Of a stretch of 64,000 bases of DNA, positions 6,872 to 25,985 are shown in pieces. The translations under genes were made by a program, and so were the position numbers. The notes beneath the pieces are model-generated. The model saw nothing but the letters and a program-made list of their open reading frames with translations. It was not told where the DNA came from and made no database searches. Position 1 is the first letter of the stretch; every line of letters begins with the position of its first letter. Origin of the DNA: Minisyncoccota bacterium (lineage in GTDB: Bacteria; Patescibacteriota; Minisyncoccia; Phycocordibacterales; CAIZLB01); contig DASWWM010000034.1 of assembly GCA_036405975.1 (NCBI GenBank), forward strand, positions 4,675 through 68,674, written 5' to 3'.

Positions 6872-7939
6872 CTACTCAAGGGCCATTTTCTTGTCATCAG
6901 GGTATTCGACACCCATATGCGCATAGCCGAGCTCTGTAACCACTCGCCCTCGCGGCGTTCGCTCGATGAATCCGAGCTGTATAAGGTAGGGCTCATTGAA
7001 CTCCTCAATGGTCGCCTGATCCTCAGAAAGGGAAGCGGCAATGGTATTGAGTCCTACCGGGCCTCCATTGTACTTCTGCACGAGCGTTTCGAGGATGACT
7101 CGGTCTGAATGCGTAAGTCCCTTGCTGTCGATGCCTATGAGCTTCAAGGCCTCCATTACGGACTCTTTTGTAAGCTTTGTTTTTTGGATCTGGGCATAAT
7201 CACGGCATCTCTTGAGGAGATAGTTTGCCGTTCGCGGAGTCCTTCGGCTTCTTCGGGCTATTTCCTGAAAGCCTTCCTCCTCGGCTTCGACGCCAAGGAT
7301 CTTTGATGAGCGCTTGATGATTTCTTCGATTTCGTCTTCTGTATAAAATTCAAGCCTGAAGACGCCTCCTGAGAAGCGTGATCGGAGCGGCGACGACACC
7401 ATCGCGATGCGAGTCGTCGCAGCAATGAGCGTAAACGGAGGGAGGTCGAGCTGGATGCTTCGAGCTGAGGGTCCTTTACCAATGATAATGTCTATCTGTC
7501 CTGACTCCATTGCAGGATAAAGGACTTCCTCGACTGTCTTATTGAGTCTGTGGATCTCATCAATGAAAAGAATGTCGCCTGGGGATAGGTTTGTGAGCAC
7601 TGATGCAAGGTCACCAACCCGTTCGATGGCGGGACCTGACGTAACCTTCATCTGAACGCCTGTCTCTTTGGCGATGAGATGTGCTAACGTGGTTTTACCA
7701 AGACCTGGCGGTCCGTAAAAGAGGATGTGCTCGGGAGGGTGATTTCTTTCCTTTGCAGCAGTCAAAAGGATATGGAGATTGTCCTTTATATTCTTCTGTC
7801 CTATATAGTCGTTGAACTTCGACGGCCTTAATGTCTGGTCCAAAGAAAGGTCGCCTGTGGTTTCGAGCTGGTCACCTTGGTCTGAATAAATAGAGTTATT
7901 TTCAGCCATATCATCTGGTTCTAGGGAAGTGCTTGACAT
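6872..7939 (-). CDS. ruvB: Holliday junction branch-migration ATPase RuvB
   Basis: The sequence LRPSKFNDYIGQ..., Walker A LFYGPPGLGKTTLAHLIA, Walker B ILFIDEIHRL and sensor motifs are present over 355 aa. Confidence 0.9.
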   Translation of the reverse strand: MSSTSLEPDDMAENNSIYSDQGDQLETTGDLSLDQTLRPSKFNDYIGQKNIKDNLHILLTAAKERNHPPEHILFYGPPGLGKTTLAHLIAKETGVQMKVTSGPAIERVGDLASVLTNLSPGDILFIDEIHRLNKTVEEVLYPAMESGQIDIIIGKGPSARSIQLDLPPFTLIAATTRIAMVSSPLRSRFSGGVFRLEFYTEDEIEEIIKRSSKILGVEAEEEGFQEIARRSRRTPRTANYLLKRCRDYAQIQKTKLTKESVMEALKLIGIDSKGLTHSDRVILETLVQKYNGGPVGLNTIAASLSEDQATIEEFNEPYLIQLGFIERTPRGRVVTELGYAHMGVEYPDDKKMALE

Positions 7940-8099
7940 AAAAAAGATTTATGCTATGATGTATATCAGAATCGCATTCAAAGGAATCCCGGCGGAATAC
8001 ATCCAGTATGTACGAAGCGCGGAAATTCCGAGTAGCTGCGATCATCTCTTTCTAAGAATACTCAAAATATTGAGTCTCCTTACAAAAAGGTTCGGCTGA

Positions 8100-8277
8100 A
8101 ACAGCCCCTTAAATCTCTAAGCAATAGAAATTGTAAAATTTCAATCGGTTTTTCTCGAAGGACGCTTTGGTGCGAGCTCCTATGCCACGTTCCTGGGGCT
8201 ATCCTTAGAGAACTGTCGGGCTTTCGATCTCAGGATTGAAAGCATTGCTTAGAGATTTAAGGGGCTGTTTTTTTATT
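8100..8277 (+). repeat. About 170 bp element bounded by a 25 bp perfect inverted repeat and followed by a T-run; candidate structured ncRNA or MITE-like element
   Basis: The arm at 8100-8124 (aacagccccttaaatctctaagcaa) is the exact reverse complement of 8245-8269 (ttgcttagagatttaaggggctgtt). The 120 bp interior has further internal pairing, for example tttcaatc with gattgaaa. The T-run ttttttt at 8270-8276 follows on the plus strand. There is no ORF. Confidence 0.5.
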
Positions 8278-8337
8278 TCCCGGATATCAAGTTACTCATT
8301 AAGAATAAGCGTCCGGGGCAGTGAAGTCAATTGACAT

Positions 8338-10197
8338 TTACACTCTCAAAGTGTCTTGCTGACCCGCAATATCAGGCTTTGTTTCTTGGAAATTATCAAG
8401 GCTTAATCTTTTCTCAACCTCCTCGAATGTCTCTGCTCCGAAATCGGATGAGGCGTCCTGTATGCTGTCCGGTACTGCCGTATCCGCTGGTTCTTCTGGA
8501 ACGAGCTCTATCTCTTCCGCAAGGTCAACTACTCGCTCGAGCTCTTCAAACGTCGTAATTCCTTTGAGTACCTTTGTGAGGCCGTCTTGCTTCATGGTCA
8601 TGATGCGCTGGGAAGCGGCAGCTTTTCGTATTTCTCGTTCACTCGGGTTTTCCCGGATGATGTATTCGATGTTTTTGTCGGCAAGGATGGCCTCGTATAC
8701 GCCGAGTCGTCCTCTATAGCCTGTATTGTTACATTTGTCGCACCCTACAGCCGTCCATATTTCAGTCGGCTTTTCTGGGAAGAACGATGCTTCCTCGTAC
8801 CCTTTAAGGGAATTGATGAGTTCGTCCACAAGGGCCTGTCTCTCTGCCGGAATAGGTATTTTTTTCCTACAGTCGACGCATACCTTTCGAAGAAGTCTTT
8901 GTGCCATGGCTACCCTGATCGAAGAGGTGAGCACTTTCGGGTCCACACCGAGGTCTACAAGTCGCGTGAATGTACCTGCCGCATTGTTGGTGTGAAGGGT
9001 GGAGAGTACGAGGTGACCCGTAAGCGAAGCCTGGATGGCTGTCGCTGCCGTTTCTCCGTCTCGGATTTCTCCCACCATGATCACATCGGGGTCTTGTCGA
9101 AGTGCTGCTCGGAGGCCAGACTCAAAGTTGTAGTTTTTCTTCTCGTCTACCTGCGTCTGCACGATGCCTGCGAGGTGGTATTCGATCGGATCTTCGATCG
9201 TGATGATTTTCATCTCAGGGCTCTGCACTTTTCGGAGGAATGAATAAAGGGTTGTTGTCTTTCCAGAACCCGTAGGACCTGTTGTGAGAATGAGCCCGTT
9301 CGGCCGCTCGATTTCAACGGCAAGAATTCGCAGGAGCTTTTCAGGGAACCCGAGCTCCTCCATCGGCGTTGAGATTGACTTCGGATTGAGGATTCGCATT
9401 ACAATCGACTCGCCATATGCACTCGGAACGGTAGATGTTCGAATTTCAATATCGCTCATGTAGATCTTCACCGTGAATCGTCCGTCCTGCGCAGCGTCTT
9501 TGATATTGAGCTTGAGGCCTGAAAGAAGCTTGATTCGGGATAGGAGCAGCCTGTATGTCTCGATATCGAACTTAGCAACCTCGATAAGGACGCCGTCGAG
9601 CCTGTATCGAATGACTGCATGGTCTGCTTCTGATTCGACGTGGATATCCGAAGCTTTTGTGGAAAGTCCGCCTGCCATAACGATGGCTATAACTCTTGAT
9701 ATTTTATGGCTTTTCTTGATCGCGAGAGCCTCTTCGACGAGAACTGAAATATCCTCGAGCTTTTTCGTCTTTTCTATGAGCTGCTCGATTTCCTCGTTCG
9801 AGATATCGAGTGACCCTGCTTCTGTCTCGAATGCGAACGAAAGATCCTTGTAGCGATCCCATGCTTTCTCGATGCTGTGCATTGAGGAGAGGAATACTGC
9901 CGTCGCATAGCCTTTTCCTTGAAGTTTCTTGATGCTGTCCACTACAGCCTGGCTGTTGATGGTATGAACAGCGATGGAGATTCTCTTTCCGACAATGTCG
10001 AAGACCGCCATCTTGTTCTCGCGAGCTTCGGCTTCGGGAATGAGTCTGAGACCGTCGGTATTGATAGGGACTCGGGTAAGGTCTATGTATGGGAGGCCGT
10101 ATTTTTCAGCGACAATCTGTACGGATTTTTCTTCCTCTTCCGCTCGCAGCGTTCGGAGTCGCTGATTCTGCTTGTCTTCATCAAAATGGATGGTCAT
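8338..10197 (-). CDS. pilB: Type IV pilus assembly ATPase PilB / GspE family
   Basis: A 619 aa protein with an N-terminal GSPII_E-N-like region. Walker A is LILTTGPTGSGKTTTLYS. The Asp and His boxes ITIEDPIEY and VMVGEIRD are present, and a C-terminal tetracysteine CVDCRKK...GCDKCNNTGYRGRLGVYE is typical of PilB. Confidence 0.85.
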   Translation of the reverse strand: MTIHFDEDKQNQRLRTLRAEEEEKSVQIVAEKYGLPYIDLTRVPINTDGLRLIPEAEARENKMAVFDIVGKRISIAVHTINSQAVVDSIKKLQGKGYATAVFLSSMHSIEKAWDRYKDLSFAFETEAGSLDISNEEIEQLIEKTKKLEDISVLVEEALAIKKSHKISRVIAIVMAGGLSTKASDIHVESEADHAVIRYRLDGVLIEVAKFDIETYRLLLSRIKLLSGLKLNIKDAAQDGRFTVKIYMSDIEIRTSTVPSAYGESIVMRILNPKSISTPMEELGFPEKLLRILAVEIERPNGLILTTGPTGSGKTTTLYSFLRKVQSPEMKIITIEDPIEYHLAGIVQTQVDEKKNYNFESGLRAALRQDPDVIMVGEIRDGETAATAIQASLTGHLVLSTLHTNNAAGTFTRLVDLGVDPKVLTSSIRVAMAQRLLRKVCVDCRKKIPIPAERQALVDELINSLKGYEEASFFPEKPTEIWTAVGCDKCNNTGYRGRLGVYEAILADKNIEYIIRENPSEREIRKAAASQRIMTMKQDGLTKVLKGITTFEELERVVDLAEEIELVPEEPADTAVPDSIQDASSDFGAETFEEVEKRLSLDNFQETKPDIAGQQDTLRV

Positions 10198-14069: not shown

Positions 14070-14142
14070 TGCGTCCAGTTGGAATCGAACCAACGACCCT
14101 CTGCTTAAAAGGCAGGTGCTCTACCGACTGAGCTATGGACGC
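14070..14142 (-). tRNA. tRNA-Lys (anticodon TTT)
   Basis: The reverse complement reads GCGTCCA TA GCTC AGTCGGTA GAGC A CCTGC CTTTTAA GCAGA GGGTC GTTGG TTCGATT CCAAC TGGACGC A. It is a cloverleaf with anticodon UUU and A37, and a T-loop TTCGATT. Confidence 0.85.
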
Positions 14143-14234
14143 GTATTGCATTCTGAGGCTTTGCTTGGCCGTGCCAGCTGATGCCGTGCAAGGTAAGGAG
14201 ACCAGAAGAATGCTACGAAATATATCAGAAAATC

Positions 14235-14660
14235 CTAAAGTGGCAAATCGAGGGCCCAGAGTCCTGCCCCTGAGAATACGAGGCTAAGAGAGATGAGGAA
14301 GAGGAGCATGTATTCCATCCAAGATCGCATTTTGAGCTGTGGATCTCGAACGACTACGACAAGCGATACGAATGCGATGATTGCTCCGATGATAGAGGCA
14401 ATCTGCGTAAGAAGGCCGATGATCATGCAGGCACCGATGATGAACTCTGTGAATCCGAGAGCTTTGACGAATTTGTCGGCAGGCTTGATCTTGATCGAAT
14501 CGAAGTATGTGATAAGCGCATGTCGGTTCAGAGTGAACTTTGAGTAGCCGAGCATGATGAAGTACGCTCCGGCACCCAGTCGGATCAGGGTAGGGGCCAT
14601 CGACTTCAGGAATAGAAGTTCTGGAAATGTATTAAGCATGGCTCCTATGATATCACACAT
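14235..14660 (-). CDS. DoxX-family small membrane protein (tentative)
   Basis: A 141 aa protein with four predicted TM segments (APTLIRLGAGAYFIMLGYSKF..., FIIGACMIIGLLTQIASIIGAIIAFVSLVVVV...). The topology and length are like DoxX. The start codon is uncertain. Confidence 0.4.
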   Translation of the reverse strand: MCDIIGAMLNTFPELLFLKSMAPTLIRLGAGAYFIMLGYSKFTLNRHALITYFDSIKIKPADKFVKALGFTEFIIGACMIIGLLTQIASIIGAIIAFVSLVVVVRDPQLKMRSWMEYMLLFLISLSLVFSGAGLWALDLPL

Positions 14661-14680
14661 AATGGTGCTATAAAGGTGTC

Positions 14681-15166
14681 ATGAAGAGCGTTGCCCAAGC
14701 TGTAGTCGTCCTCCCTGATATCAGAAGTGCCCACAATGTCGGTTCTATTTTCCGTACCTGTGATGCTGCGGGAATCGATAAGGTGTATCTTGCTGGCTAT
14801 ACTCCCGATCCTCTCGACCGATTCGGCCGGCCTGTTAAGGAAATCGCAAAGACTGCCTTGGGTGCCGAGAAGACTATTCCTTGGGAGCACGAGGGTGATG
14901 TGCTGAAGCTTCTAGCTAAGCTTAAAAAGGAAGGCTTTGTTGTCGTGGCGATTGAGCTGACTGAAAATTCAGCTGACTATAAGACAATCGCCGTCGCACC
15001 GGATGCGAAAGTCGCATTTGTATTTGGAAACGAGGTTGATGGTGTCAGCGCTGAGGTTCTAGAGCGATGCGATGTCGTGGCGCATATTCCAATGGGCGGG
15101 GAGAAGGAATCACTGAATGTTTCGGTTGCTGCCGGCATCGCGCTTTTTAGAATTCTGGGCATATAG
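14681..15166 (+). CDS. SpoU/TrmH-family RNA 2'-O-methyltransferase
   Basis: SPOUT motifs are present: HNVGSIFRTCDAAG, FVFGNEVDGVS and IPMGGEKESLNVSVAAGIALF. Confidence 0.8.
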   Translation: MKSVAQAVVVLPDIRSAHNVGSIFRTCDAAGIDKVYLAGYTPDPLDRFGRPVKEIAKTALGAEKTIPWEHEGDVLKLLAKLKKEGFVVVAIELTENSADYKTIAVAPDAKVAFVFGNEVDGVSAEVLERCDVVAHIPMGGEKESLNVSVAAGIALFRILGI

Positions 15167-15200
15167 CAAAAATGCTATATTGGGTGTCGAATCAGGTACT

Positions 15201-16142
15201 TTACTTTGCGAGCTGTTGGTGGGCACTGCAAAAATGTGCGCTTCTTCCACCGACCACCTTTCGCAGGATGGTGCCATCGCAGCCTTTCTTTGTGCATGTT
15301 TTGCCGGTCTTTCTATAAGCGTTGTGATGCGCCTGGAATTCTCCGCGCTCGCCTTTGATATTTCTGTAATCTGACATCGAGTCGCCACCGAAGTCGATCC
15401 CTTTCCTGAGTACTTCTTTAACTGCTTTGTATAACGTTTTGAGCTTTTCTTCAGGCACTTTTCGGGGCTTCTCCTCAGGATGGATTCCAGCCAGCCACAA
15501 TGCTTCATCGGAATAGATATTGCCGACGCCTGAGATAAGCGTTTGATCCATTAATACATTCTTTATCCTGCCTTCAGGTCGTCTGAGCAGCTGTTCATTG
15601 AAAACTTTATACGTAAAATTATCTTCAAGCGGTTCCGGGCCAAGATGGCTCATATGCATGCTCATTTCGATATCAGCGGTGTCGATGAGCGTGACTTTCG
15701 CAAACTTCCTCATATCTGAAAGCACGAGGTGCTTCTTATTTGAAAGTGAAAATACGAGTCGGATATGTCTATTGAAAGGATCAAGCAATGCTTCTGATCC
15801 TTCCTTGTCTTTAACGGGTTTCCATGGATCCTTCGCATCTTCCGGCTTATCGCTTTTTGCATATGTGCCGTACATGACATGGCCGGTCATTTTCATGTGG
15901 AGGAGGATGGTTTTTCCTTTGCTTAGATGGATGAGAATATTCTTGGCGCGCCGTTCAGCTTTGAGGATTTTAAATCCAGATACGGCGCGCCTGAAATCAG
16001 CAAAATATGCAGGGTCTTTTATATTGTCCTTACCTTCGTGATGCTTGCTGTCATAGCTTGTCCAAACATCGGTAATCGAAAGGCCTGCAACTGTCTGGTT
16101 GATCCCGTTTACCGTCGTCTGTACTTCAGGGAGTTCTGGCAT
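15201..16142 (-). CDS. mutM: Formamidopyrimidine-DNA glycosylase (Fpg/MutM)
   Basis: The protein starts MPELPEVQTTVNGI, carrying the catalytic Pro2 signature. It has the H2TH region and a C-terminal zinc finger CTKKGCDGTILRKVVGGRSAHFCSAHQ. The ORF-track entry 15201..16703 carries a spurious 187 aa S/R-rich N-terminal extension that overlaps ruvA in another frame. Confidence 0.85.
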   Translation of the reverse strand: MPELPEVQTTVNGINQTVAGLSITDVWTSYDSKHHEGKDNIKDPAYFADFRRAVSGFKILKAERRAKNILIHLSKGKTILLHMKMTGHVMYGTYAKSDKPEDAKDPWKPVKDKEGSEALLDPFNRHIRLVFSLSNKKHLVLSDMRKFAKVTLIDTADIEMSMHMSHLGPEPLEDNFTYKVFNEQLLRRPEGRIKNVLMDQTLISGVGNIYSDEALWLAGIHPEEKPRKVPEEKLKTLYKAVKEVLRKGIDFGGDSMSDYRNIKGERGEFQAHHNAYRKTGKTCTKKGCDGTILRKVVGGRSAHFCSAHQQLAK

Positions 16143-16248
16143 ATGGGCACATAATAGGCGAGCGGGTATAAAATGCAATTGCGAATATGAAAGTCCCGCC
16201 CTTTGTCGGAAGCCGGACTTCATCAAATGCGACGCTTTGTTTGTGAAC

Positions 16249-16821
16249 CTATCTGCTGAGCTGCTTGAGCGCGTACTTAATCTTCTCTGTCGTTCCGTTG
16301 ATATCGCTTGGAATATGCTCAAGTGCATCCTTGGCTTCCTTGTGGTTGTAGCCGAGCGACTTAAGGGCCTCGATGACATCGACGTCTCCTCCGCCGACGC
16401 TTCCGATGCCCGGCTCTGCTGCTCCGGCCTTGCCTTTGAGTTCGAGGACGATCTTGTCAGCGACTTTCTTTCCAATACCTGCAATCTTCGTAATGTATGC
16501 CGTTTCTCCGGTAGAGATAGCCTCGCGAAGTGCCTGCACTGAAGCTGCACCAAGAATGCCGATGGCTGACTTTGGGCCGATGCCTGAAACGGTAAGGAGG
16601 AGTTCGAAGAAGGAGAGGGTGTCTCGGTCCCTAAAACCGTAAAGGTCCAAAGCGTCTTCTCGGACAACCGTATGGATCCAGAGGGTCGCAGGGTCTCCTT
16701 CATGAAGCTGGCTCAGGGTATCGAGCGTTGCATACACTTTATATCCGACACCGCCATTGGTCTGGACGACCACGTATTTGAGGTCTTTGTGAAGGGCGAT
16801 GCCGCTCAGGTATGAAATCAT
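16249..16821 (-). CDS. ruvA: Holliday junction DNA helicase subunit RuvA
   Basis: A 190 aa protein. MISYLSGIALHKDLKYVVVQTNGGVGYKVYAT is the OB-fold N-terminus. The HhH pairs SGIGPKSAIGIL and IAGIGKKVADKIVLEL and the C-terminal domain III are present. Confidence 0.85.
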   Translation of the reverse strand: MISYLSGIALHKDLKYVVVQTNGGVGYKVYATLDTLSQLHEGDPATLWIHTVVREDALDLYGFRDRDTLSFFELLLTVSGIGPKSAIGILGAASVQALREAISTGETAYITKIAGIGKKVADKIVLELKGKAGAAEPGIGSVGGGDVDVIEALKSLGYNHKEAKDALEHIPSDINGTTEKIKYALKQLSR

Positions 16822-16913
16822 GCCTGTATTCTAGCAGAAATGGACCGAAAAGGCCGAATATGGGCCTTGGCAGTTGCTAATCCTGCGATAATCTGGTACA
16901 TTCTTGCGTACAT

Positions 16914-17177
16914 ATGCCAATTATTCAATCAGCAAAAAAGGCTCTCCGAGGCTCTTCAAAGAAGAAGGTTTTCAACCTCCGACGACAGAAGAACGTAGAT
17001 GCAGCCCTCAAGAACATCAAGAAGCTCGTTTCTGAGAAGAACATCAAGGAAGCGGAGAAGGCCCTTTCAGTCGCTTACAAGGCACTCGACAAGGCAGCTA
17101 AGGGTGGAACTATCAAGAAAGGCGAAGCATCTCGAAAGAAGTCTCGAATGTCAGCTCTCATCGTCCGAAGCAAGTAA
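16914..17177 (+). CDS. rpsT: 30S ribosomal protein S20
   Basis: An 87 aa basic protein with MPIIQSAKKALRGSSKKKVFNLRRQKN..., which is the S20 pattern (ANIKSAKKR). Confidence 0.85.
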   Translation: MPIIQSAKKALRGSSKKKVFNLRRQKNVDAALKNIKKLVSEKNIKEAEKALSVAYKALDKAAKGGTIKKGEASRKKSRMSALIVRSK

Positions 17178-17190
17178 TAGCTTCAAATCA

Positions 17191-17222
17191 AAAAGCCTCC
17201 GAGAAATCGGAGGCTTTTGTTT
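17191..17222 (+). terminator. Intrinsic terminator after rpsT
   Basis: Stem agcctccg/cggaggct (17194-17215) followed by ttttgttttt. Confidence 0.75.
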
Positions 17223-17248
17223 TTGCTGATCTGGCAGTCTGCAGCGAT

Positions 17249-17806
17249 TTAGTTTTGACGGCGCTCGTGAACCTCGCGAATGATCGTCACATGCTTCGTG
17301 ATCTCGTCCTTAACGTCTTGCGGGTTTGGGATCTCTCGGCACATGAATCGAAGTTCCGCTGCCGCCGTCTGCACCTCAAGGTCTCCGTATCCCATCATGG
17401 TTGGAATGGCTCCTTCGATTCGCACTGATATGTCCTGGATGTTATGAAGGCTGAGCTCCGAGATTCTCCGGTCAAAGAATCCACACTGCCTGCTATTGAT
17501 GATCCGCTTGTCCGTCACGATCCAAGTTTCAAGGGTGTACATGGTCAGCGTATAGAACAGGAAGAACCAGAGTGCCATGTAATAGCATGAAGATATAAGG
17601 ATGAAGAGGGAAAGGAGGTTGTTGGAGAGAATCATTGGACCGAATACTACGAGTACGGCAAGCGGGATGAATCCGCCGAGAAATATGTACGTAATCCTTC
17701 CAACCAGCGTAAACCAATGCCTATGGAGAAACAGAAGAACTGTCTCGTCATCCTTCTTTCCTTCGAACGTATATGATGTCTTCGTGATGAATGAGAATAG
17801 GTCCAT
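17249..17806 (-). CDS. Membrane protein with a bacterial PH-like (bPH_2/YdbT-like) domain
   Basis: A 185 aa protein with two N-terminal TM helices. The C-terminal region ...ETWIVTDKRIINSRQCGFFDRRISELSLHNIQDISV... resembles the DUF304/bPH_2 fold. Confidence 0.45.
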   Translation of the reverse strand: MDLFSFITKTSYTFEGKKDDETVLLFLHRHWFTLVGRITYIFLGGFIPLAVLVVFGPMILSNNLLSLFILISSCYYMALWFFLFYTLTMYTLETWIVTDKRIINSRQCGFFDRRISELSLHNIQDISVRIEGAIPTMMGYGDLEVQTAAAELRFMCREIPNPQDVKDEITKHVTIIREVHERRQN

Positions 17807-17816
17807 ATGCTTATAG

Positions 17817-18083
17817 TTATGCTGCCAAAACGGCCTGAACGTAGAATAAAGTGGTAATGAGGGACAGAAGTATGGATCCTCCCAGGAATATTATCGCGAG
17901 CTTTTTCGGCTGTCCGCTTACGCCGAATCGAATGAGGTGATAGAGGATGAAAAAAGCTCCGGTCCAGTATATGAGCATCGCGAGCGTGAATACGAATGTC
18001 ACCACTCCTGTGCCTGAAGTGAATGTCGACGCCTGCGAAAGAAGGTCCAATGTTGGGTTATTCATGCAGATTAAGTATATCAA
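17817..18083 (-). CDS. Small hydrophobic membrane protein (hypothetical)
   Basis: An 88 aa protein with two predicted TM helices. It is immediately downstream of the bPH-domain gene on the same strand. Confidence 0.35.
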   Translation of the reverse strand: MIYLICMNNPTLDLLSQASTFTSGTGVVTFVFTLAMLIYWTGAFFILYHLIRFGVSGQPKKLAIIFLGGSILLSLITTLFYVQAVLAA

Positions 18084-18104
18084 TTTGGTATACTTACGTC
18101 ATTC

Positions 18105-19097
18105 ATGGATTCTTCAGCTCCGTTAGGAATCAGGGTTTGGGCGGCACTGATACTGACTCCGCTCATTGTCGGTTTCGGAGGAACTGTCGCTTTCTTGCAT
18201 TTTATGAATCCTCCCGAGTTTCAAGATGATTTTGCTCTGGCGGCCCAGGCCTCCCGCCTTGCTCGGCCGGAAATCCTACCGTCGGTTCAACTGCCCGTCT
18301 CCGTTGCCGTTGCGGAAATTGAGACCCCGGAAGATCCCTTGGAAACCGCTTCTTCAAGCGAAGACACAGCGATCCTTGCTACGACCACAGCATCTTCTTC
18401 AGCACCAACAACGATTCCCTCAAAGCCTGTTACTGCTGCTTCAACCGCAAGCTCTGCTGCGCCATCGAGTACGGCGAAGGCCGATGAACCGGTGACTGGA
18501 TTCAGGCTCAACGTTCCGTACTACAAGCAGCAGTACACCAACAGTTGTGAGGCTGCATCTCTCAGAATGGCGCTGGCTTACAGGGGCATATTCAAGAATG
18601 ATATGGAACTCATTGTCTTGATGGGATACAAGCCGAGACCGAGAGACTTGGTGAACAATATCTGGGATGATCCTCAGGAAATGTACGTGGGGGAAGTTGA
18701 TGTCGTCGATATCTCGAAAGGCTACGGAGTTTATGGAAAGCCTGTTGCGCGAGTTGCGCGCGAGCTTGGCCGGCGTGCTGATTTTGCCGATGACATAACT
18801 CCTTATGCGCTCGCTGCTGAGGTTCGAAGAGGGAATCCTGTCCTTATGTGGGGATATACAAGCCTTACCGGTTCTCCGTATACATGGAATACGCCAGAGG
18901 GAAAAACCGTAACGGCATTCAGAGGCGAGCATTCAAGACTTGTTGTTGGTTATGAGGGTGAAGTTGAAAATCCCACAGGTTTTTACGTTCATGACCCTTT
19001 CAATGGGAGAGAGTACGAGTATTGGACAAGCCAGGCACTCTTCGCACAATTCCATGCGGTGAAGAATGTTACGAATCAGGCTGTCGTGGTTAGGTAA
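18105..19097 (+). CDS. Membrane-anchored peptidase C39-like (C39_2/YvpB-like) domain protein with a Ser/Thr/Ala-rich linker
   Basis: An N-terminal TM segment, then the low-complexity stretch SSSEDTAILATTTASSSAPTTIPSKPVTAASTASSAAPSSTAKA. It then reads NVPYYKQQYTNSCEAASLRMALAYRGI, carrying the catalytic Cys of C39-like peptidases. Confidence 0.55.
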   Translation: MDSSAPLGIRVWAALILTPLIVGFGGTVAFLHFMNPPEFQDDFALAAQASRLARPEILPSVQLPVSVAVAEIETPEDPLETASSSEDTAILATTTASSSAPTTIPSKPVTAASTASSAAPSSTAKADEPVTGFRLNVPYYKQQYTNSCEAASLRMALAYRGIFKNDMELIVLMGYKPRPRDLVNNIWDDPQEMYVGEVDVVDISKGYGVYGKPVARVARELGRRADFADDITPYALAAEVRRGNPVLMWGYTSLTGSPYTWNTPEGKTVTAFRGEHSRLVVGYEGEVENPTGFYVHDPFNGREYEYWTSQALFAQFHAVKNVTNQAVVVR

Positions 19098-19118
19098 GGG
19101 AAGGGCAAAAGCCAGTCT

Positions 19119-19712
19119 TTACGCATTGAACAGATTATCCTTGTCGGTCTCGATTCGGCTGACCAACTCCTTGAAGATGGCCTCGATCGTTTTATCCACT
19201 GCAACTTTTGGCATTTTCATGCTCGTGAGCATTTCTAGTGTCACATTGTTCTTTTTCCATGTTCTGCCTCCGTCGAGATATATGCTGAGGACGGGCTCAA
19301 TTTTGTCTAATGCATAAATGAATTTGCTTTCATCGTCCTCTCTGGCTTCGTATCGGTCGATAGCGTCGTGAAGTTCGGGGAACTCTGGGAACTCGCTTCT
19401 CAGTCTTCGGGCAGCTTCTTGCTCCTTGTTATGCTTGCTGTTCAGGACATCTGCATCTGTCTGATAAAAGAATGTGTCTCCGGCATATATTTCAACCAGG
19501 TCATGTGCAAGGGCATAAGAGAAAAGCTTGCTTAGATCCAAGTCAAGCTTGTACGTCGAATGGATATGCCAAGCAAGCATCGCGAGCGTGAATGAATGCT
19601 CGACGTCGTTTTCGTTCTGGTCACTCTTGTGCACGAGCAGGCTTCGCTCGATCGTTCGGTATTGATGCAGAAGGTTGGTGAATTTGAGAAGCTGGTCCAG
19701 GGAAGGGTTCAT
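19119..19712 (-). CDS. HD-domain 5'-deoxynucleotidase (YfbR-like)
   Basis: Starting from the internal Met (MNPSLDQLL...), the protein is 197 aa. HD motifs are present: EHSFTLAMLAWHIH and YALAHDLVEIYAGDT. The longer ORF-track version (to 20048) runs through a tRNA gene and is rejected. Confidence 0.7.
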   Translation of the reverse strand: MNPSLDQLLKFTNLLHQYRTIERSLLVHKSDQNENDVEHSFTLAMLAWHIHSTYKLDLDLSKLFSYALAHDLVEIYAGDTFFYQTDADVLNSKHNKEQEAARRLRSEFPEFPELHDAIDRYEAREDDESKFIYALDKIEPVLSIYLDGGRTWKKNNVTLEMLTSMKMPKVAVDKTIEAIFKELVSRIETDKDNLFNA

Positions 19713-19964
19713 GGCGGTAGGCGTTGGAATATTGGCTAATTCTAACCCGGCCTGGATTTTGGGCAAATCTACCAGGGATTTCCTTGTTGTGCTCTCTTCG
19801 GAATCTCCGACTACGTCGGCGGGTGGCTTTCCGGTTTCCTCGAATGGCAGTTCTCGAAAACACGGAAAGTCCTTTCGATTCCTGACGCAGGCAAAGCAGT
19901 TTGCCTGCTTCTCGGCATCGGCATAAGTAAAAGGCGCCCATTCCAGGCGCCTTTTACTTATGGG

Positions 19965-20036
19965 TGCTCTCGACAGGAATCGAACCTGTATTTTAGCTTC
20001 CGCAAAGCTATGTCCTATCCATTGAACGACGAGAGC
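19965..20036 (-). tRNA. tRNA-Arg with anticodon GCG (manual fold)
   Basis: The reverse complement reads GCTCTCG TC GTTC AATGGATA GGAC A TAGCT TTGCGGA AGCTA AAAT ACAGG TTCGATT CCTGT CGAGAGC A. The anticodon loop is T-T-G-C-G-G-A, giving G34 C35 G36 and G37. A hairpin terminator follows immediately (19930-19958, ggcgcc...ggcgcc). Confidence 0.7.
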
Positions 20037-20105
20037 GGGGAAGTCCACAGGATGTGCACATGTGTACGGAATCTGTGGATATTCAGGAAAATATCATGAA
20101 GATGG

Positions 20106-20579
20106 CTAGAAGCCAAAGTATTCAAGGACCTTCTGGCCAAGCGGCTCAGGGTGATGGTCCTCGAGGAGGTTCTCGAGAAGGAAGTCTCTCACATCGTCAG
20201 GATCTGTTCCGTCGAGCGGGATTGCGATGAGGGGAACCATCGCCTTTCGCGACTTGATGATGAGCTTTGAATGCCCGTTTACGTGACGGTTATCCTCAAC
20301 CCAGAATGAGTCGAGCGTTGCGTAGGGGTAAAGTGTCCGATCGATCATCACGCCTTTTTTGCTCACTTCAAATCTGACGATCTCTGGCCTCCGGGAGGCA
20401 AAAAGGGAAAGGGCAAATGCCGCGACGATGATGAGGAGGGCGAAAAGGGCGTCACCGAAGATGACTGAAAGTATTGCAATCGAGACGGCTATGATGCCGA
20501 CCGCCCAGTACCAGTCCGAAGTCTTCTCCTGAAAGAAGTATTCGTGAGTTTCCCAGATAAAAGGACCCTTGTATGCCAT
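20106..20579 (-). CDS. Hypothetical membrane protein (two TM helices plus a soluble C-terminal domain)
   Basis: A 157 aa ORF with no recognisable motif. It sits co-directionally downstream of the HExxH membrane protein and the deaminase. Confidence 0.35.
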   Translation of the reverse strand: MAYKGPFIWETHEYFFQEKTSDWYWAVGIIAVSIAILSVIFGDALFALLIIVAAFALSLFASRRPEIVRFEVSKKGVMIDRTLYPYATLDSFWVEDNRHVNGHSKLIIKSRKAMVPLIAIPLDGTDPDDVRDFLLENLLEDHHPEPLGQKVLEYFGF

Positions 20580-20626
20580 GCCGCTATTCTACCATACAAA
20601 TAATTTTTGAAATGTCATGATTCTTG

Positions 20627-21163
20627 TCATTCGTGAACAACCACGGTCTTTGGATTGTAGATCGTGAAGTATAGGGAAAGTGCGGAGGCGGTCGCCGTTA
20701 CGAGCACGCCGATCCAAAAAAAGATATTACCGATGCTTGCGGTGTATTCAAGGGCGCCTGCTTTTGTGAGAATGTAATTCCAGTCATGGATCACGGATTC
20801 TCCTCCCAGGAGTGGAAGTTGCATAGTGATGGCGTCCTTAACATATACGGAAGTGTTTATGAGGCTTTGCCCAAGCCAGAGTGACATGATCGAACCTGCA
20901 TAGTAGCTTCCTTTGGCGGTGAAATAGGACACGAGAAAAGCGGGAATTGCGAGCTGCAAAAATGGCCCTCCGAGTATTCCCACAAACTCTCCAAGCAGCC
21001 TGAATATGGTGTGGCCCGCCTCGTGGAAGGCAAGGTTGGTTGAGTCAAGGAATGAGCCATCAACCGGGTTCGCTGCGTAGATGAAGAATAGGACGATGAA
21101 AAATAAAGTGGCCAATCCTTGGATTGCGGAGAAGGCGAAATCAAATGCTGATCGGGCTTTCAT
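20627..21163 (-). CDS. Polytopic membrane protein with an HEAGH (HExxH) motif; putative intramembrane zinc metalloprotease-like
   Basis: A 178 aa protein with about five TM segments. FHEAGHTIF lies at the edge of TM2. No clear second M50 motif was found. Confidence 0.35.
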   Translation of the reverse strand: MKARSAFDFAFSAIQGLATLFFIVLFFIYAANPVDGSFLDSTNLAFHEAGHTIFRLLGEFVGILGGPFLQLAIPAFLVSYFTAKGSYYAGSIMSLWLGQSLINTSVYVKDAITMQLPLLGGESVIHDWNYILTKAGALEYTASIGNIFFWIGVLVTATASALSLYFTIYNPKTVVVHE

Positions 21164-21195
21164 TGCCTTCAGTATATCAAAACGGACGCATTCAT

Positions 21196-21684
21196 TTATG
21201 CCCTGTGTCTGTATTCGTATGAAAGTCTATTGTATTCGTCGGTCGGGTAGGAGCAGATGCCGGCATCGTTCCAGAGGGCAAACTCCGCGACGCCCGAGTC
21301 GAGGGCGAATCTGCTGCAGACTGTGCAGAACGGTTCTCCTGACTTGAGAATGTTTCCGGCTTCGTCCGCTCGCGTGAAATACAAAGTCGAGCCCTGTATT
21401 TCATTTGGGTGATTTTTAACCGCATTGAGAATCGCGCGCCATTCGGCATGCATGCAGCAGGTCCTGTCATATTTTGGTTTACCTGCGAAGTCGGGCTCAA
21501 GACATCGTCGGCAGGCAAGGTTATCAAGCGGGGGTGCGTTGTATCCCTGGCCGATTACCTTTCCGTATTTCACGATGACGGTACCGCATTTTGCTTTGAG
21601 ACAAAGAGCCTTCTCTGCGACCTTTGCGGCTTCGTGCATCCAGTGGGTGGCTTGTTGTTCGGATTCGCCCGCGATATATTTCAT
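21196..21684 (-). CDS. CMP/dCMP-type zinc deaminase family protein
   Basis: CMHAEWRAI (H-A-E zinc ligand and catalytic Glu) and PFCTVCSR (PCxxC) are present with the correct spacing for the cytidine/deoxycytidylate deaminase fold. The protein is 162 aa. Confidence 0.65.
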   Translation of the reverse strand: MKYIAGESEQQATHWMHEAAKVAEKALCLKAKCGTVIVKYGKVIGQGYNAPPLDNLACRRCLEPDFAGKPKYDRTCCMHAEWRAILNAVKNHPNEIQGSTLYFTRADEAGNILKSGEPFCTVCSRFALDSGVAEFALWNDAGICSYPTDEYNRLSYEYRHRA

Positions 21685-21724
21685 GTTTATTCAATCCAGG
21701 GATCTGGAACTTGGACTGGTTTGT

Positions 21725-22003
21725 TTAGTTGGCGTCGGTGCATCTGAAATCCCTGTCCGGGGACTCAGATTTTGCGACCTTTACCAGGTACTCACATGTT
21801 TCAATGTTATCAGCGTAACCAAAGACAAGCATCATTCGTTCCCATCCGACTGATGAATTCATCATGAACCACTGTGCTGGTATGTTCAAGCCTCCTCTCG
21901 GATGTCTTTCGACTGCTTCGAACAGGTCAGTATTTCTATGTGAGTATCCGGTAAAAAAACCAACAGCAATCGCGATCGTAAAAACTAAGAAGTTATTTTT
22001 CAT
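21725..22003 (-). CDS. Small putative secreted protein (92 aa), weakly supported
   Basis: It starts MKNNFLVFTIAIAVGFFTGYSHR..., which is signal-peptide-like. The ATG abuts the 3' end of tRNA-Ser(GGA). The longer ORF-track version overlaps the tRNA. Confidence 0.25.
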   Translation of the reverse strand: MKNNFLVFTIAIAVGFFTGYSHRNTDLFEAVERHPRGGLNIPAQWFMMNSSVGWERMMLVFGYADNIETCEYLVKVAKSESPDRDFRCTDAN

Positions 22004-22092
22004 GGCGGAGAGAGGGGGATTCGAACCCCCGATGGGATTGCTCCCATGCCACCTTTCCAAGGTGGTACATTCGACCGCTCTGCCATCTCTCC
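22003..22092 (-). tRNA. tRNA-Ser (anticodon GGA)
   Basis: The reverse complement reads GGAGAGA TG GCAGAGCGGTCGAATGTA CCACC TTGGAAA GGTGG long-variable-arm(CATGGGAGCAATCCCATC) GGGGG TTCGAAT CCCCC TCTCTCC G CCA. CCA is encoded. Confidence 0.85.
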
Positions 22093-22243
22093 ATGGGTTC
22101 ATCATATACGGAGTTTGAAGGATGTTCAATTTGTTTGAAAAAAAATGGGGAGGAGGTGAGATGGGTGCAATCTCGCACATACTCCCGCAAAGATAAAGAA
22201 AAAAGCACATACCCTTACAGGTACATGCTTTTTTCTTTATGTG

Positions 22244-22330
22244 CGGAGGAGGTGAGATTCGAACTCACGGGCCCCGTAAAGGGCCTTCTGTTTTCAAGAC
22301 AGACGCATTCGACCACTCTGCCACTCCTCC
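22244..22330 (-). tRNA. tRNA-Ser (anticodon TGA)
   Basis: The reverse complement reads GGAGGAG ... GTCTG/TCTGT CTTGAAA ACAGA, with a long variable arm AGGCCCTTTACGGGGCCC, then GTGAG TTCGAAT CTCAC CTCCTCC G. A putative promoter lies upstream on the minus strand: TTGAAA, about 15 nt, then TATATA. Confidence 0.85.
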
Positions 22331-22479
22331 GCGTATGACTATATATTAAAGCTGGTTTTTTTTCAACTTTTTGACATACTAGGGAAGAAAGGCCGTTTTC
22401 GCCCATAAAACAAAGGAGAAAACGGCCTGGTTGTCAGGACCGGGCGGTCCGACATCCCAAAGATACACGCTAAAATAAC

Positions 22480-22869
22480 ATGAAATACCTCGGCATTGAT
22501 TTCGGCACGAAAAGAATTGGATTGGCTGTTTCGGATGAGGCAGCCACTTTGGCTTTTCCAAAGTCGATCGTTCAGGGTGGCAAAGGCGCTGCCGCTGAAG
22601 TCGTTGCATTCTGCGAGAAGGAAGGGGTTTCCGTTGCGGTCATCGGCGAATCAAAGAATTTCAAAGGTGAGGAAAATGCGATCATGGAAAATACTCGGGG
22701 GTTTGCCAAAGAGCTTGAGGCAGCCGGGCTCAAGGTCGTATATGAGCCTGAGATACTTTCAACGGTTCAGGCGCAACAGATACAAGGGGATACAGGGAAG
22801 CTTGATGCATCAGCGGCAGCCATCATCCTTCAGAGTTATCTAGACAGGCTTAAGTTTCAATCAAATTAA
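22480..22869 (+). CDS. ruvX: Putative pre-16S rRNA nuclease / Holliday junction resolvase-like YqgF (RuvX)
   Basis: MKYLGIDFGTKRIGLAVSDE... is the canonical YqgF N-terminus. The protein is 129 aa. Confidence 0.8.
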   Translation: MKYLGIDFGTKRIGLAVSDEAATLAFPKSIVQGGKGAAAEVVAFCEKEGVSVAVIGESKNFKGEENAIMENTRGFAKELEAAGLKVVYEPEILSTVQAQQIQGDTGKLDASAAAIILQSYLDRLKFQSN

Positions 22870-22885
22870 TCTCAATACCACATAT

Positions 22886-23305
22886 ATGAATACTGAAAAT
22901 ACAAATACAACGAATGCCGAGTCTGAAGTTCCGGCTGCAGGGGTACCAGAAGAATCTGCCCAGCCAATGTCTGCACCTGTATACGCATCAATCGATGACT
23001 TTGTGAAAATTGAAATGAAGATTGGAAAAGTTCTAGAGGCCGTTCCTGTCGAAGGATCTGAAAAACTCCTGAAGCTGAAGGTTGATTTTGCTGAGGCTGA
23101 ACCACGACAGGTCCTTTCTGGAATTGCTAAATTCGTGACGCCTGAAGATTTGATCGGGAATTCATTTCCTTTCGTAACAAACCTTAAGCCTCGACCGATG
23201 ATGGGTCTTGAGAGCCAGGCAATGATTCTCGCAGTGAATGACGATCAGAATTTTGCGCTTCTTAAGCCTACTGCCGAAATAAAAGCAGGAACGAGCCTGA
23301 AATAA
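22886..23305 (+). CDS. tRNA-binding domain protein (CsaA/Trbp111/EMAP-like OB fold)
   Basis: FVKIEMKIGKVLEAVPVEGSEKLLKLKVDFAEAEPRQVLSGIAKFVTPEDLIGNSFPFVTNLKPRPMMGLESQAMIL matches the MetRS C-terminal-like tRNA-binding domain. Confidence 0.7.
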   Translation: MNTENTNTTNAESEVPAAGVPEESAQPMSAPVYASIDDFVKIEMKIGKVLEAVPVEGSEKLLKLKVDFAEAEPRQVLSGIAKFVTPEDLIGNSFPFVTNLKPRPMMGLESQAMILAVNDDQNFALLKPTAEIKAGTSLK

Positions 23306-23323
23306 TTCTGACTTTGTCGTATA

Positions 23324-24418
23324 ATGGGCGAAATGAGTATCGCTCAGAAACTGTTCAAATATTTTCCAGCCCCTCGCATCATCTCGATGCCTCAGGTCGG
23401 AGTTGAGATAACTGCGACTTCGATCAGGTATATGGAGCTTGCGAGGTCGGGGGACGGAACAAAGCTCGGCAGGTACGGCACGCAGGAAGTTCCTGGCGGT
23501 GTATCGCTCAGGGAATCTCTCGTCGCAAACAAGGATCTCGTCGCGGCATTGAAAAAGATCCAGAGAGCAAACCGGTTCCAGTTTGCTGAAGTCTCCATTC
23601 CCGAGGAAGACTCGTACCTGTTCACGACAGAGATACCTCTTGGCGAAGACGAGGAGATTCGAAGCCATATCGAGTTTCACCTTGAAGAGAACGTTCCTGT
23701 CAGCCTCGCTGATGCGGTCTTCGACTACCATGTCATCCATAAGGATGAAAAGAAGGGGACAGGCTTCGCTTCGGTCTCGGTCGTGCAGAGGTCTGTCATT
23801 GATCAGTACATAGATCTGTTCGAAATGTGCGGCATGACGCCTATCTCATTCATTATTGAGAACCAGGCTCTGGCAAAGGCTCTCACTCCTCGCAATGCCG
23901 ACTTCTCGTCGCTCATTGTCCATGTCGGCGCCGTAAAGACCGTTCTTTCGGTTGTCAGCGAGGGTGCCGTTCAGTTCACCTCGACCGTGAGTATCGGGAG
24001 CAATGACTTCACTGCAGCCATCGCAAAGGAGTATGGCATCTCGCCTGTCGAAGCAGAACGGCTCAAGCAGGAGAAAGGGTATCTGAAGAATCCGGAGAAC
24101 AATGAGTTCTTCATGCTCCTCATCAATGCCGTATCCGCACTCAGGGACGAGGTCCAGCGCGTGTACATGTACTGGCAGACCCATTCTGAGAAGAATGGGA
24201 AGCAGGGCTCGCAGACAAAGGTTATCCTTGCCGGCAGAGACTCATCTATCATCGGATTCAGGGAATATCTTGCCCTCTCGCTCAAGGTTCCGGTAGAGCT
24301 TGCGAATGTCTGGGCAAACGTATTCACCTTCGACAAGGAAATTCCGCCGATCGAGTATCTTGAATCGCTCGACTATGCGGTCGCGGTCGGTCTCGCTCTA
24401 CCAAAAAATACAGACTAG
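23324..24418 (+). CDS. pilM: Type IV pilus assembly protein PilM (actin-like ATPase fold)
   Basis: A 364 aa protein. The N-terminal sequence ...VGVEITATSIRYMEL... and the overall ASKHA-like architecture match PilM. It is followed by PilN/PilO-like genes. Confidence 0.65.
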   Translation: MGEMSIAQKLFKYFPAPRIISMPQVGVEITATSIRYMELARSGDGTKLGRYGTQEVPGGVSLRESLVANKDLVAALKKIQRANRFQFAEVSIPEEDSYLFTTEIPLGEDEEIRSHIEFHLEENVPVSLADAVFDYHVIHKDEKKGTGFASVSVVQRSVIDQYIDLFEMCGMTPISFIIENQALAKALTPRNADFSSLIVHVGAVKTVLSVVSEGAVQFTSTVSIGSNDFTAAIAKEYGISPVEAERLKQEKGYLKNPENNEFFMLLINAVSALRDEVQRVYMYWQTHSEKNGKQGSQTKVILAGRDSSIIGFREYLALSLKVPVELANVWANVFTFDKEIPPIEYLESLDYAVAVGLALPKNTD

Positions 24419-24436
24419 CGTACAATAGGAAACGAT

Positions 24437-25072
24437 ATGCTCCATCTTCTTACTGAAGAACACAAGGCGAAAATTATCAGGCAGTACCGAATGAGACTTC
24501 TCATCGTGCTTTGCCTCGGCATCGTTCTGACGCTTGTCGCCGCTGCCATCTTCCTCATTCCTTCCTATGTGATCTCCTTCAGCGCGTACTCCGAGGTGCA
24601 GGCCGAGAAGAATAGGCTCGTCTCTCTTGTTGCGGCAAAGCAGACGGACGCTTTGGCAAATGACGTGAAGGAAGTCTCAAACACTCTCGAGGCACTCAAG
24701 TCTCATGCAGACAGGAGGAATCCGACTCGAATCTTTGAGCGGATTGTTCAGGGCAAGCCATCCGGCGTCTCTGTGACAAGCTTCGCCTATACGCCCGAAT
24801 CGGACTCGCAGGTCACTGTGGACGTTGCGGGGAAGGCAAATACTCGAGGGTCACTTTCGTCATATGTAGACATGCTGAAGGCTGACAAGGTATTCTCAGG
24901 GGTCTCCATCCCGCTTTCCAGCTTTGCCCGCGAGCGAGACATCTCATTCAATCTGAAGATTTCGGTGAACACGGCCGATGAATCATGGATATTCAGCGCT
25001 CCGGAAGCTTCTGTGGTCGAGGAGGCTGCGATGCCGTCGATGGTTCCTGCGACTTCGACAGATAGCCAGTAA
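24437..25072 (+). CDS. PilN-like pilus assembly protein (bitopic)
   Basis: A single N-terminal TM helix (LIVLCLGIVLTLVAAAIFLIP) then a coiled-coil segment. The size and position after pilM support the call. Confidence 0.5.
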   Translation: MLHLLTEEHKAKIIRQYRMRLLIVLCLGIVLTLVAAAIFLIPSYVISFSAYSEVQAEKNRLVSLVAAKQTDALANDVKEVSNTLEALKSHADRRNPTRIFERIVQGKPSGVSVTSFAYTPESDSQVTVDVAGKANTRGSLSSYVDMLKADKVFSGVSIPLSSFARERDISFNLKISVNTADESWIFSAPEASVVEEAAMPSMVPATSTDSQ

Positions 25073-25078
25073 AACATC

Positions 25079-25660
25079 ATGAGCAAAACAACCCGAATCT
25101 TCATACTCAGTCTTCTGGTCTCGCTTGCTTCTGTTGCGGGGTACGCCTACGGCACCTCGTATGTATCAGGCCTTTCAGAAAAGACACGTGCGGCAAAAAG
25201 CGACGTTGAACTAGCTGAAATAAAATACCGGCACATCCTCTCGCTTGAGAAGGCTGCACAAAATACTAACAGTGAGACTTCTCAGATAAACGAGTTTCTC
25301 ATCCAGCCAAATGCGGCGATCGGGTTCGTCACGAAGATCGAGTCTGATGCGGCTGATCTCGGTCTCAGCTATAACACCGATTCAATCGAGGTGCGAAACA
25401 CTGAGGCCTTGAGCGCACAGGGAAAGGAGCTCGTTGTCGTAAGCTTTACGGCAAGCGGCAGATGGGCATCAGTATTCAAGATGATCAAGAGCGTCGAGAA
25501 TCTTCCATATGCAGTCAAGTTCGATAAGATCGATCTGGTCATGCTCGGCGATTCGAATCCGGCACAGGCAGTTTCAGCGACAGGCACGACGCCTTCCGTA
25601 CGGGAAAAGAACTGGAAGGCGTCGATGATCTTCACAGCAGTTAAGATGCAGGACAAATAA
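25079..25660 (+). CDS. PilO-like pilus assembly protein (bitopic)
   Basis: An N-terminal TM helix, a coiled-coil and a C-terminal ferredoxin-like region. It sits in the pilM-pilN-pilO order. Confidence 0.45.
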   Translation: MSKTTRIFILSLLVSLASVAGYAYGTSYVSGLSEKTRAAKSDVELAEIKYRHILSLEKAAQNTNSETSQINEFLIQPNAAIGFVTKIESDAADLGLSYNTDSIEVRNTEALSAQGKELVVVSFTASGRWASVFKMIKSVENLPYAVKFDKIDLVMLGDSNPAQAVSATGTTPSVREKNWKASMIFTAVKMQDK

Positions 25661-25661
25661 T

Positions 25662-25976
25662 ATGAAATCAAACTTCCTTGATAGGGCGAAAAACATAAGG
25701 CTGATCCGGAACAATCCTGACCGGGACTGGGCCGTACTTTTCACGTTGCTTTTGATCCTCGTCGTCTGTGCTCTTGCTTGGAGCGTCTATTTCTTCTTCG
25801 GGATCGTTCGGGATATCGAAGAGGTTCAGGCATATAAGGATACCAAGGTGCAGAACAATCTTGATGGGACTGAAGCCGAGCTGAAGAACATCATAGATAC
25901 ATACGAGAAGAGGAAGGCTGAAGGGCAGAAGCTGAAGGGCAGCTATCCCGTGCTTGGCGACCCGTCGGTATTTTGA
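25662..25976 (+). CDS. Small bitopic membrane protein, probably part of the pilMNO operon
   Basis: A 104 aa ORF starting 2 nt after pilO, with one TM helix (WAVLFTLLLILVVCALAWSVYFFFG). Confidence 0.4.
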   Translation: MKSNFLDRAKNIRLIRNNPDRDWAVLFTLLLILVVCALAWSVYFFFGIVRDIEEVQAYKDTKVQNNLDGTEAELKNIIDTYEKRKAEGQKLKGSYPVLGDPSVF

Positions 25977-25985
25977 TAAGGTACT

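Follow-up and report, generated by a model that had tools for sequence, protein, structure and literature searches.

A perfect inverted repeat beside ruvB in Paceibacteria is probably the closing helix of a conserved, structured small RNA gene

What is a perfect inverted repeat with widely separated arms doing in the interval between ruvB and pilB of a Candidatus Paceibacterota (CPR/Patescibacteria) MAG? The question arises in a 64-kb stretch of DNA, analysed as a whole and referred to here as the window, in which a repeat search found two 27-nt arms (8099-8125 and 8244-8270) that are 100% complementary and lie 118 nt apart. The initial annotation had described exact terminal repeats of 25 bp, or 26 of 27 when extended, so that the repeat proves slightly better than first reported. 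Within the 64-kb window the 27-mer arm occurs at these two places only, and 100 shuffles gave an expectation of 0. The run of seven T residues noted earlier on the + strand spans 8268-8274, the first three of which are paired to the AAA at 8099-8101. Folded as RNA, the element reaches -86.7 kcal/mol (z = -10.0) on the + strand and -75.0 kcal/mol (z = -8.8) on the - strand relative to shuffled sequences. Both neighbouring ORFs, RuvB (6872-7939) and a T2SSE/PilB-type ATPase (8338-10197), are on the - strand. The window begins a few kb from dnaN, dnaA, rnpA and yidC, which places the locus near the presumed origin of replication; within the window's clade, the order dnaN-PBP-tyrS/trpS-ruvC-ruvB-RNA-pilB-tsaE-polA is widely kept.

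Two candidates had been put forward for the element, a structured noncoding RNA with a closing stem and a terminator-like 3′ end, and a miniature inverted-repeat transposable element (MITE). We consider it very probable that the element forms the core of a small RNA (sRNA) gene that is conserved, single-copy, structured and transcribed on its own from the window + strand. A single conserved syntenic copy with compensatory changes is the pattern that the initial annotation had named as that of a noncoding RNA, and it is the pattern found, as described below.

The family comprises 201 distinct sequences, drawn from metagenome contigs and from MAGs of Patescibacteria/Paceibacterota. When GTDB species, represented by one genome each, were scanned with the 14-bp inner arms, at least 119 loci were recovered, each on a different Patescibacteria/Paceibacterota contig and with one copy apiece; among the genome loci listed, ruvB lies 43-373 nt from the element in the same relative orientation wherever the contig permits. 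A metagenome scan that was independent of the arms, using only the central motif AGGAC-N3-CUGGT...CUGG-N3-TATCCT plus a covariance model (R1), gave ~100 further members, and ruvB was divergent and adjacent in 79 of the 79 metagenome loci with enough flank. RuvB homologues were also used to reach related contigs, where the RNA was present in all 10 of the complete ruvB upstream regions sampled in this way, among them three loci whose RuvB proteins show 74-77% identity. At one of these three (L258, 3688-3855 of a 1-Mb contig), the RNA stands head-to-head with ruvB even though pilB and ruvC are both elsewhere; a peptidase gene is found upstream. pilB usually, though not always, flanks the opposite side of the RNA gene and is adjacent in ~90% of loci. 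In close relatives found via RuvB, the element takes the same position between pilB and ruvB, and its interior is more conserved than its flanks. Conservation of the family extends over the Paceibacteria and related Patescibacteria (CPR), and the RNA gene is head-to-head with ruvB in every examined Paceibacteria (CPR) locus with sufficient flank. A scan of viral contigs returned two chance matches, neither with a covariance-model hit. In one relative (L009, 5142-5522), an additional called ORF of 126 aa that has no Pfam hit and ~500 bp more DNA separate pilB from the RNA gene.

These observations bear directly on the transposon candidate. A length of ~172 bp with perfect 27-bp terminal inverted repeats does recall bacterial MITEs of the Correia, RUP and ERIC types, which are ~170 bp long with terminal inverted repeats of ~26 bp. 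However, both a pattern search and the covariance model find one copy in the window, where R1 gives a single match of 136.5 bits on the + strand and 58.6 bits on the - strand, and at the at least 119 genome, ~100 metagenome and 10 ruvB-sampled loci the element is next to ruvB wherever the flank suffices, with no other context. The flanks, CTG and TTT, form no target-site duplication, and no empty site was seen, the element being present at all related ruvB loci with full upstream sequence. Unlike a MITE, the element has its own predicted promoter and terminator, and its arms covary as RNA helices do, with strand-specific G.U pairs. Because it is single-copy, always occupies the same ruvB-adjacent site, lacks a target-site duplication and covaries in its arms, the idea that it is a MITE or a MITE remnant is close to untenable.

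A consensus of 82 sequences consists of a closing stem of ~26 bp (P1), which often contains a 2x2 internal loop, a P2 hairpin, a long P3 arm and a P5 hairpin, placed in the window as follows.

8099-8125, + strand: P1 5′ strand of the closing helix; both-side changes in 20 of 24 P1 pairs in the arm-independent sample
8127-8142, + strand: P2 hairpin, GAAAUU-GUAA-AAUUUC; a variable hairpin occupies this place in most members and is absent from minimal variants
8147-8217, + strand: P3 arm, made up of P3.0 (8147-8149/8215-8217), P3 (8152-8162/8202-8212) and an apical hairpin
8159-8171/8193-8205, + strand: P3 motif, AGGAC-GCU-UUGGU...CUGG-GGC-UAUCCU, conserved and rich in G.U
8220-8243, + strand: P5 hairpin, GCUUUCGAUC-UCAG-GAUUGAAAGC; 8 of 8 pairs changed on both sides in the arm-independent alignment (A5)
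8244-8270, + strand: P1 3′ strand, identified from the inverted-repeat arm and covariation

Across the 82 sequences, 92.3% of cells are paired, changes on both sides occur in 29 of the 49 pairs, and the covariation score of 0.36 compares with 0.155 for shuffled alignments (0/500) and with 0.07-0.10 when partners are slid. The arm-independent sample of 96 distinct sequences gives 93% paired cells, 38 of 49 pairs with compensatory changes and a score of 0.457 versus 0.172, pair counts that are somewhat inflated by the fitting of its alignment (A5) to the model's structure. P2 and the apical P4 hairpin were aligned only loosely and were therefore judged sequence by sequence. An apparent invariance of the inner 14-bp arms in the at least 119 genomes is an ascertainment artefact, because the same arms had served as the search query; the arm-independent sample covaries there. 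In the high-GC variants L168, L224, L156 and L197, moreover, P1 is quite different in sequence, and the changes are compensatory. Of two internal pairings proposed in the initial annotation, tcgaagg/cctt falls within the conserved P3 helix and stands, while tttcaatc/gattgaaa joins segments that belong to the separate hairpins P2 and P5, and this pairing is not conserved.

The family form of the P3 motif is AGGAC-N3-CUGGU...CUGG-N3-UAUCCU; on the RNA strand it reads as AGGA/UCCU, a 1x2 loop, a G-C pair, two mostly U.G pairs, and CUGG/CUGG with tandem G.U. Conservation within the family peaks in helices and internal loops, namely in the sequence of P1, in AGGAC/UAUCCU and in the CUGG/CUGG tandem G.U, and not in single-stranded seeds. 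Because the minimal members (L136, 5886-6014, 129 nt; L182, 12448-12585, 138 nt), which are almost continuous hairpins, lack P2 and/or P5, the core can be defined as P1 plus the P3 arm with its motif.

Which strand carries this structure? When the P3 arm is read on the ruvB strand, the pair-type count gives ~350 A.C/C.A mismatches versus 17 G.T; on the + strand these mismatches become G.U pairs that alternate with A-U and G-C, the route that covariation usually takes. A P1 pair (23-181) behaves similarly in the arm-independent sample, with 47 GU, 41 GC and 7 AU in the + sense. The + strand forms the more stable fold in 113 of 122 sequences, and the apical loops on that strand are variable, with sequences such as UUCG, UCCG and CUUG. 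Because the bias in G.U pairs, fold stability, the upstream promoter and the downstream terminators (see below) all point the same way, the structure belongs to the window + strand, and the RNA is predicted to be read from it, opposite to both ruvB and pilB. A reading on the ruvB strand, suggested by U.G wobbles in P1 of close relatives, is rejected on the pair types in P3, on the promoter and terminator statistics, and on the balance of G.U and A.C wobbles in P1 (83 versus 66). DNA-level explanations, i.e. a cruciform or mimicry of a Holliday junction, are also unlikely in view of the 118-nt spacer and the strand-specific G.U pairs.

The strand assignment weighs heavily against a cis-regulatory element of the ruvB 5′ untranslated region, such as a riboswitch or attenuator, folded on the - strand. 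Such an element would explain why, at the loci listed, the structure always keeps the same orientation and a distance of 43-373 nt on the upstream side of ruvB, why a promoter-like site on the ruvB strand is found upstream of it in the window and in some relatives, and why a small terminator-like hairpin is present on that strand (8106-8094). Nevertheless, A.C mismatches would then number in the hundreds in the conserved helices, at positions that are G.U on the + strand; the - strand fold is the less stable in those 113 of 122 sequences; and it is the + strand that carries the strong promoter and the terminators. The structure being on the wrong strand, a ruvB riboswitch is very unlikely. The hairpin itself, GGCTGTTTCAGCC followed by GAACCTTTTT at window positions 8094-8106 (-), overlaps the end of P1 and is not general in the family; it could represent an alternative structure in a ruvB-sense transcript.

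The following signals and leader features of a + strand transcript are predicted in the window.

7933-7938, + strand: -35 box TTGACA of the predicted sRNA promoter; score 11/12, with a 16-nt spacer
7952-7960, + strand: extended -10 element TGcTATGAT; TGnTAnnnT is found at the right spacing in essentially all loci
7967-8098, + strand: predicted 5′ leader of 132 nt with two hairpin units; transcription start inferred from promoter geometry
7971-7976/8037-8042, + strand: 5′ hairpin of the leader in the fold of the predicted transcript, enclosing a hairpin at 7983-8029
8061-8076, + strand: second leader hairpin in the fold of the predicted transcript
8268-8277, + strand: U-tract that, with P1, forms the predicted intrinsic terminator; T7 at 8268-8274 directly follows the stem

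A near-consensus promoter of the form TTGACA-N16/17-TGnTAnnnT lies upstream in the + sense in 193 of the 201 family sequences. In the + sense, the top promoter score reaches 11 or more in 100% of loci, versus 0-2% in five control combinations of region and strand. The promoter appears to be of the sigma-70 type, and its geometry predicts a transcription start at ~7967. From there, a primary transcript of ~310 nt (~7967-8275) is predicted, with z = -7.8 and a centroid fold that agrees with the comparative structure of the core. Both spacer hairpins noted in the initial annotation (7983-8029 and ~8061-8076) are real and fall within the predicted leader. The outer leader stem GAATCGCA...TGCGATC (7971-7976/8037-8042) is kept, with changes, in relatives of the clade; the inner hairpin at 7983-8029 is an insertion found in the window's genome only. 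The leader is lineage-specific, with lengths of 7-184 nt among family members. Because leader length is so variable, the P1-bounded core is taken to be the functional unit, possibly released by processing.

At the 3′ side, a T-run, or a separate hairpin followed by a T-run, is found downstream in 107 of 189 loci in the + sense versus 20 of 189 in the ruvB sense. P1 together with its U-tract has the form of an intrinsic terminator, yet the stem encloses a conserved, structured core of 118 nt. Another alternative is that the element is merely a long, perhaps bidirectional, terminator between pilB and ruvB, or a fortuitous palindrome. P1 followed by U7 is what a terminator would look like; however, conservation is higher in the 118-nt interior than in the flanks, and covarying helices and motifs are found within it, a dedicated consensus promoter is aimed into the element, and a T-run follows the P1 stem on the pilB/ruvB strand in just 12 of 189 loci. 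We regard this alternative as highly improbable. The inverted repeat is better read, from comparative sequence evidence, as both the closing helix and the predicted terminator of a highly structured small RNA gene. In the model that we propose, transcription would start at ~7967 from a promoter whose -35 box lies opposite codons 1 and 2 of ruvB; downstream of the lineage-specific leader, the RNA would fold into a module of ~172 nt closed by P1, which would enclose P2, the long P3 arm with its G.U-rich internal motif, and P5; and P1 with the U7 tract would serve as the RNA's own intrinsic terminator.

The RNA matches no family in Rfam 15. A search of the whole window against Rfam 15 at gathering thresholds reported tRNAs only, and no match was found at the element (7900-8400) at E<=10 or in 12 diverse members at E<=1. 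The initial annotation had recognised no signatures of 6S, SRP, RNase P or tmRNA. Weak Rfam hits to CRISPR-DR42 (E=1.2), SOX2OT and mir-6 were rejected as chance matches. 5S rRNA, RNase P RNA, tmRNA and SRP RNA, as well as hammerhead, hairpin and twister-sister ribozymes, do not fit the element when judged by their sequence motifs, and none of these was reported by Rfam. No rRNA, tmRNA, RNase P RNA or SRP RNA was found in the 64-kb window. It does carry seven single tRNA genes spread over ~17 kb (14070-30887), at 14070, 19965, 22006, 22244, 26043, 28124 and 30817.

Four known kinds of RNA nevertheless invite comparison. The initial annotation had described its RNA candidate as 6S-like, and 6S RNA (SsrS; RF00013 and relatives) is indeed similar in size, in its long end-to-end closing stem, and in being a stand-alone gene with a strong promoter and precursors with variable leaders. 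E. coli ssrS precursors carry a variable 5′ leader. An RNA that binds the RNA polymerase holoenzyme by mimicking an open promoter would account for the ~170-nt core, the long closing stem formed by its ends, and the family's variable 5′ leader and strong promoter. On the other hand, there is no Rfam 6S match, either in the window (E<=10) or in the 12 diverse members (E<=1); the site expected to hold a large central bubble is instead taken up by the four-way junction of P2, P3 and P5, with short linkers and helix P3.0; the minimal variants are nearly continuous hairpins; and the AGGAC/UAUCCU and CUGG/CUGG motif is not a feature of 6S RNA. Because the central bubble is missing, the 6S identity fails, and a 6S-like function is quite unlikely.

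The second comparison is with SRP (4.5S) RNA: the element, too, is predicted to be a stable small RNA, and the minimal members of its family are extended hairpins that have conserved internal loops close to the apex. The element differs in having neither a GNAR tetraloop nor the loops of helix 8, in its variable UNCG/CUUG apices and in the lack of an Rfam SRP match; the identity fails because the GNAR loop and the helix-8 motifs are absent. Y RNA and YrlA share with our RNA a long, sequence-conserved stem formed by both RNA ends and a multi-helix cap. An end-stem of this kind usually means that the stem is recognised by a protein. The RNA differs from Y RNA in lacking an Rfam match and a bulged Ro-binding helix, and because no rsr (TROVE) gene is nearby, none having been found in the gene lists of related loci, this identity fails as well.

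The fourth comparison, with antisense countertranscripts such as CopA, RNA I, plasmid ctRNAs and chromosomal asRNAs, leads to the question of function. Like these, the sRNA has a strong, presumably constitutive promoter that faces the 5′ region of a neighbour, is a compact stem-loop RNA that would end at an intrinsic terminator, and is arranged in a way that predicts interference with that neighbour. In contrast to them, it is chromosomal, conserved class-wide and endowed with a complex covarying fold; its overlap with the ruvB transcript is predicted at most, and it leaves the ruvB start codon and ~30 nt before it uncovered. The features on the ruvB side are these.

6872-7939, - strand: ruvB, the divergent neighbour, whose start codon lies beneath the -35 box of the sRNA
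8302-8330, - strand: promoter-like site TTGACT-17-TATTCT, just past the pilB stop codon and conserved in close relatives

The ruvB ATG (7937-7939, -) and the following Ser codon form the complement of the -35 box plus T7939, an unusual layout in which the -35 box of the RNA is written into the start codon of ruvB. In 135 of the 193 promoter-bearing loci, TTGACAT is the exact complement of the ruvB ATG-TCA-A, the ATG being in frame with a long ORF; in ~30% of loci the -35 box lies off the ruvB ATG, and the linkage is still complete. In the NCBI annotation of the same MAG, RuvB begins 10 codons later (345 aa vs 355 aa).

The arrangement suggests to us, tentatively, a role in cis, in which ruvB is the target of the RNA and of its very strong promoter, and this is the functional reading that we prefer. 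Two routes may be envisaged. The sRNA promoter would occlude the ruvB start region or collide with incoming RNA polymerase, or the RNA would pair as an antisense with a ruvB 5′ untranslated region that begins beyond the RNA gene; by either route, expression of ruvB (and ruvC) would be held down or tuned, and the conserved fold would stabilise the RNA and/or bind a protein. The motifs of promoter and terminator do lie on the strand opposite the ruvB 5′ region, as in cis-encoded antisense RNAs. Promoter-like sites in the ruvB sense are found beyond the RNA gene in 27 of 182 loci (TTGACN) or 53 of 182 (TTGANN), i.e. 15-29%, versus 0-1 (TTGACN) and 3-17 (TTGANN) in the four control regions that do not include the sRNA promoter; the interval from the RNA to ruvB holds such a site in 1 of 182 loci. 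It is therefore plausible, going by these motifs, that transcription of ruvB begins on the far side of the RNA gene and runs through it; the window site at 8302-8330 (-) may be such a ruvB promoter, whose transcript would traverse the sRNA gene in antisense. The -35 sequence of this site sits in a perfect 10-bp palindrome, GTCAATTGAC (8326-8335). If the ruvB mRNA does read through, it would meet both a very strong convergent promoter and a complementary RNA.

Several observations temper the proposal of a role in cis. Synteny is general in this region, pilB also being adjacent in ~90% of loci; a fold of several helices that is deeply conserved, internal loops included, is seen more often in protein-binding or catalytic RNAs than in simple antisense RNAs; and the far-side promoter on the ruvB strand is detected in only 15-29% of loci. 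Because regional synteny is general and the overlap of promoter and start codon would by itself hinder separation, the linkage to ruvB is weaker functional evidence than it appears. The alternative is a trans-acting housekeeping or protein-binding RNA, i.e. a component of an RNP, a sponge or a structural RNA, for which the position next to ruvB would be a frozen accident kept by the overlap of the promoter with the ruvB start and by conserved synteny near the origin. A near-consensus promoter like those of stable-RNA genes, a single copy in all sampled relatives, peak conservation in helices and internal loops as opposed to single-stranded seed regions, and a variable leader suggestive of processing to the P1-bounded core all speak for such an RNA. 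Yet the linkage is complete even in the ~30% of loci that lack the overlap of -35 box and ATG, the RNA stays with ruvB where pilB and ruvC have moved off, and neither a partner protein nor a known RNA family (Rfam) has been identified. We regard a trans-acting role as less likely than not, but almost as probable as the role in cis.

A bolder proposal would be a previously unrecognised, class-wide Paceibacteria RNA that acts with or on the RuvB branch-migration machinery and is not a generic antisense RNA. It might, for example, titrate or load RuvB/RuvC or form part of a dedicated RNA-based circuit that controls recombination repair, in which case a four-way-junction fold beside the gene for a Holliday-junction motor would be no coincidence. 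We consider this unlikely. More generally, with the -35 box lying within the ruvB start, control of recombination repair by an RNA or by promoter competition can be tested in reporters.

The CPR/Patescibacteria make up a large, mostly uncultured share of bacterial diversity and have tiny genomes. To our knowledge, no lineage-specific noncoding RNA has been described for them; our literature searches found none, nor any published description of the present RNA, which is apparently an undescribed family of a known general kind. Because covariation is strong, the RNA is present in every sampled relative and a near-perfect promoter precedes nearly all copies, the sRNA is likely to be both abundant and important. 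The covariance model is ready for the annotation of hundreds of MAGs, and the RNA is a clear target for the mining of metatranscriptomes. The sole positional parallel found in the literature is the unrelated pneumococcal csRNA3, which is also located upstream of ruvB (PMC9764711).
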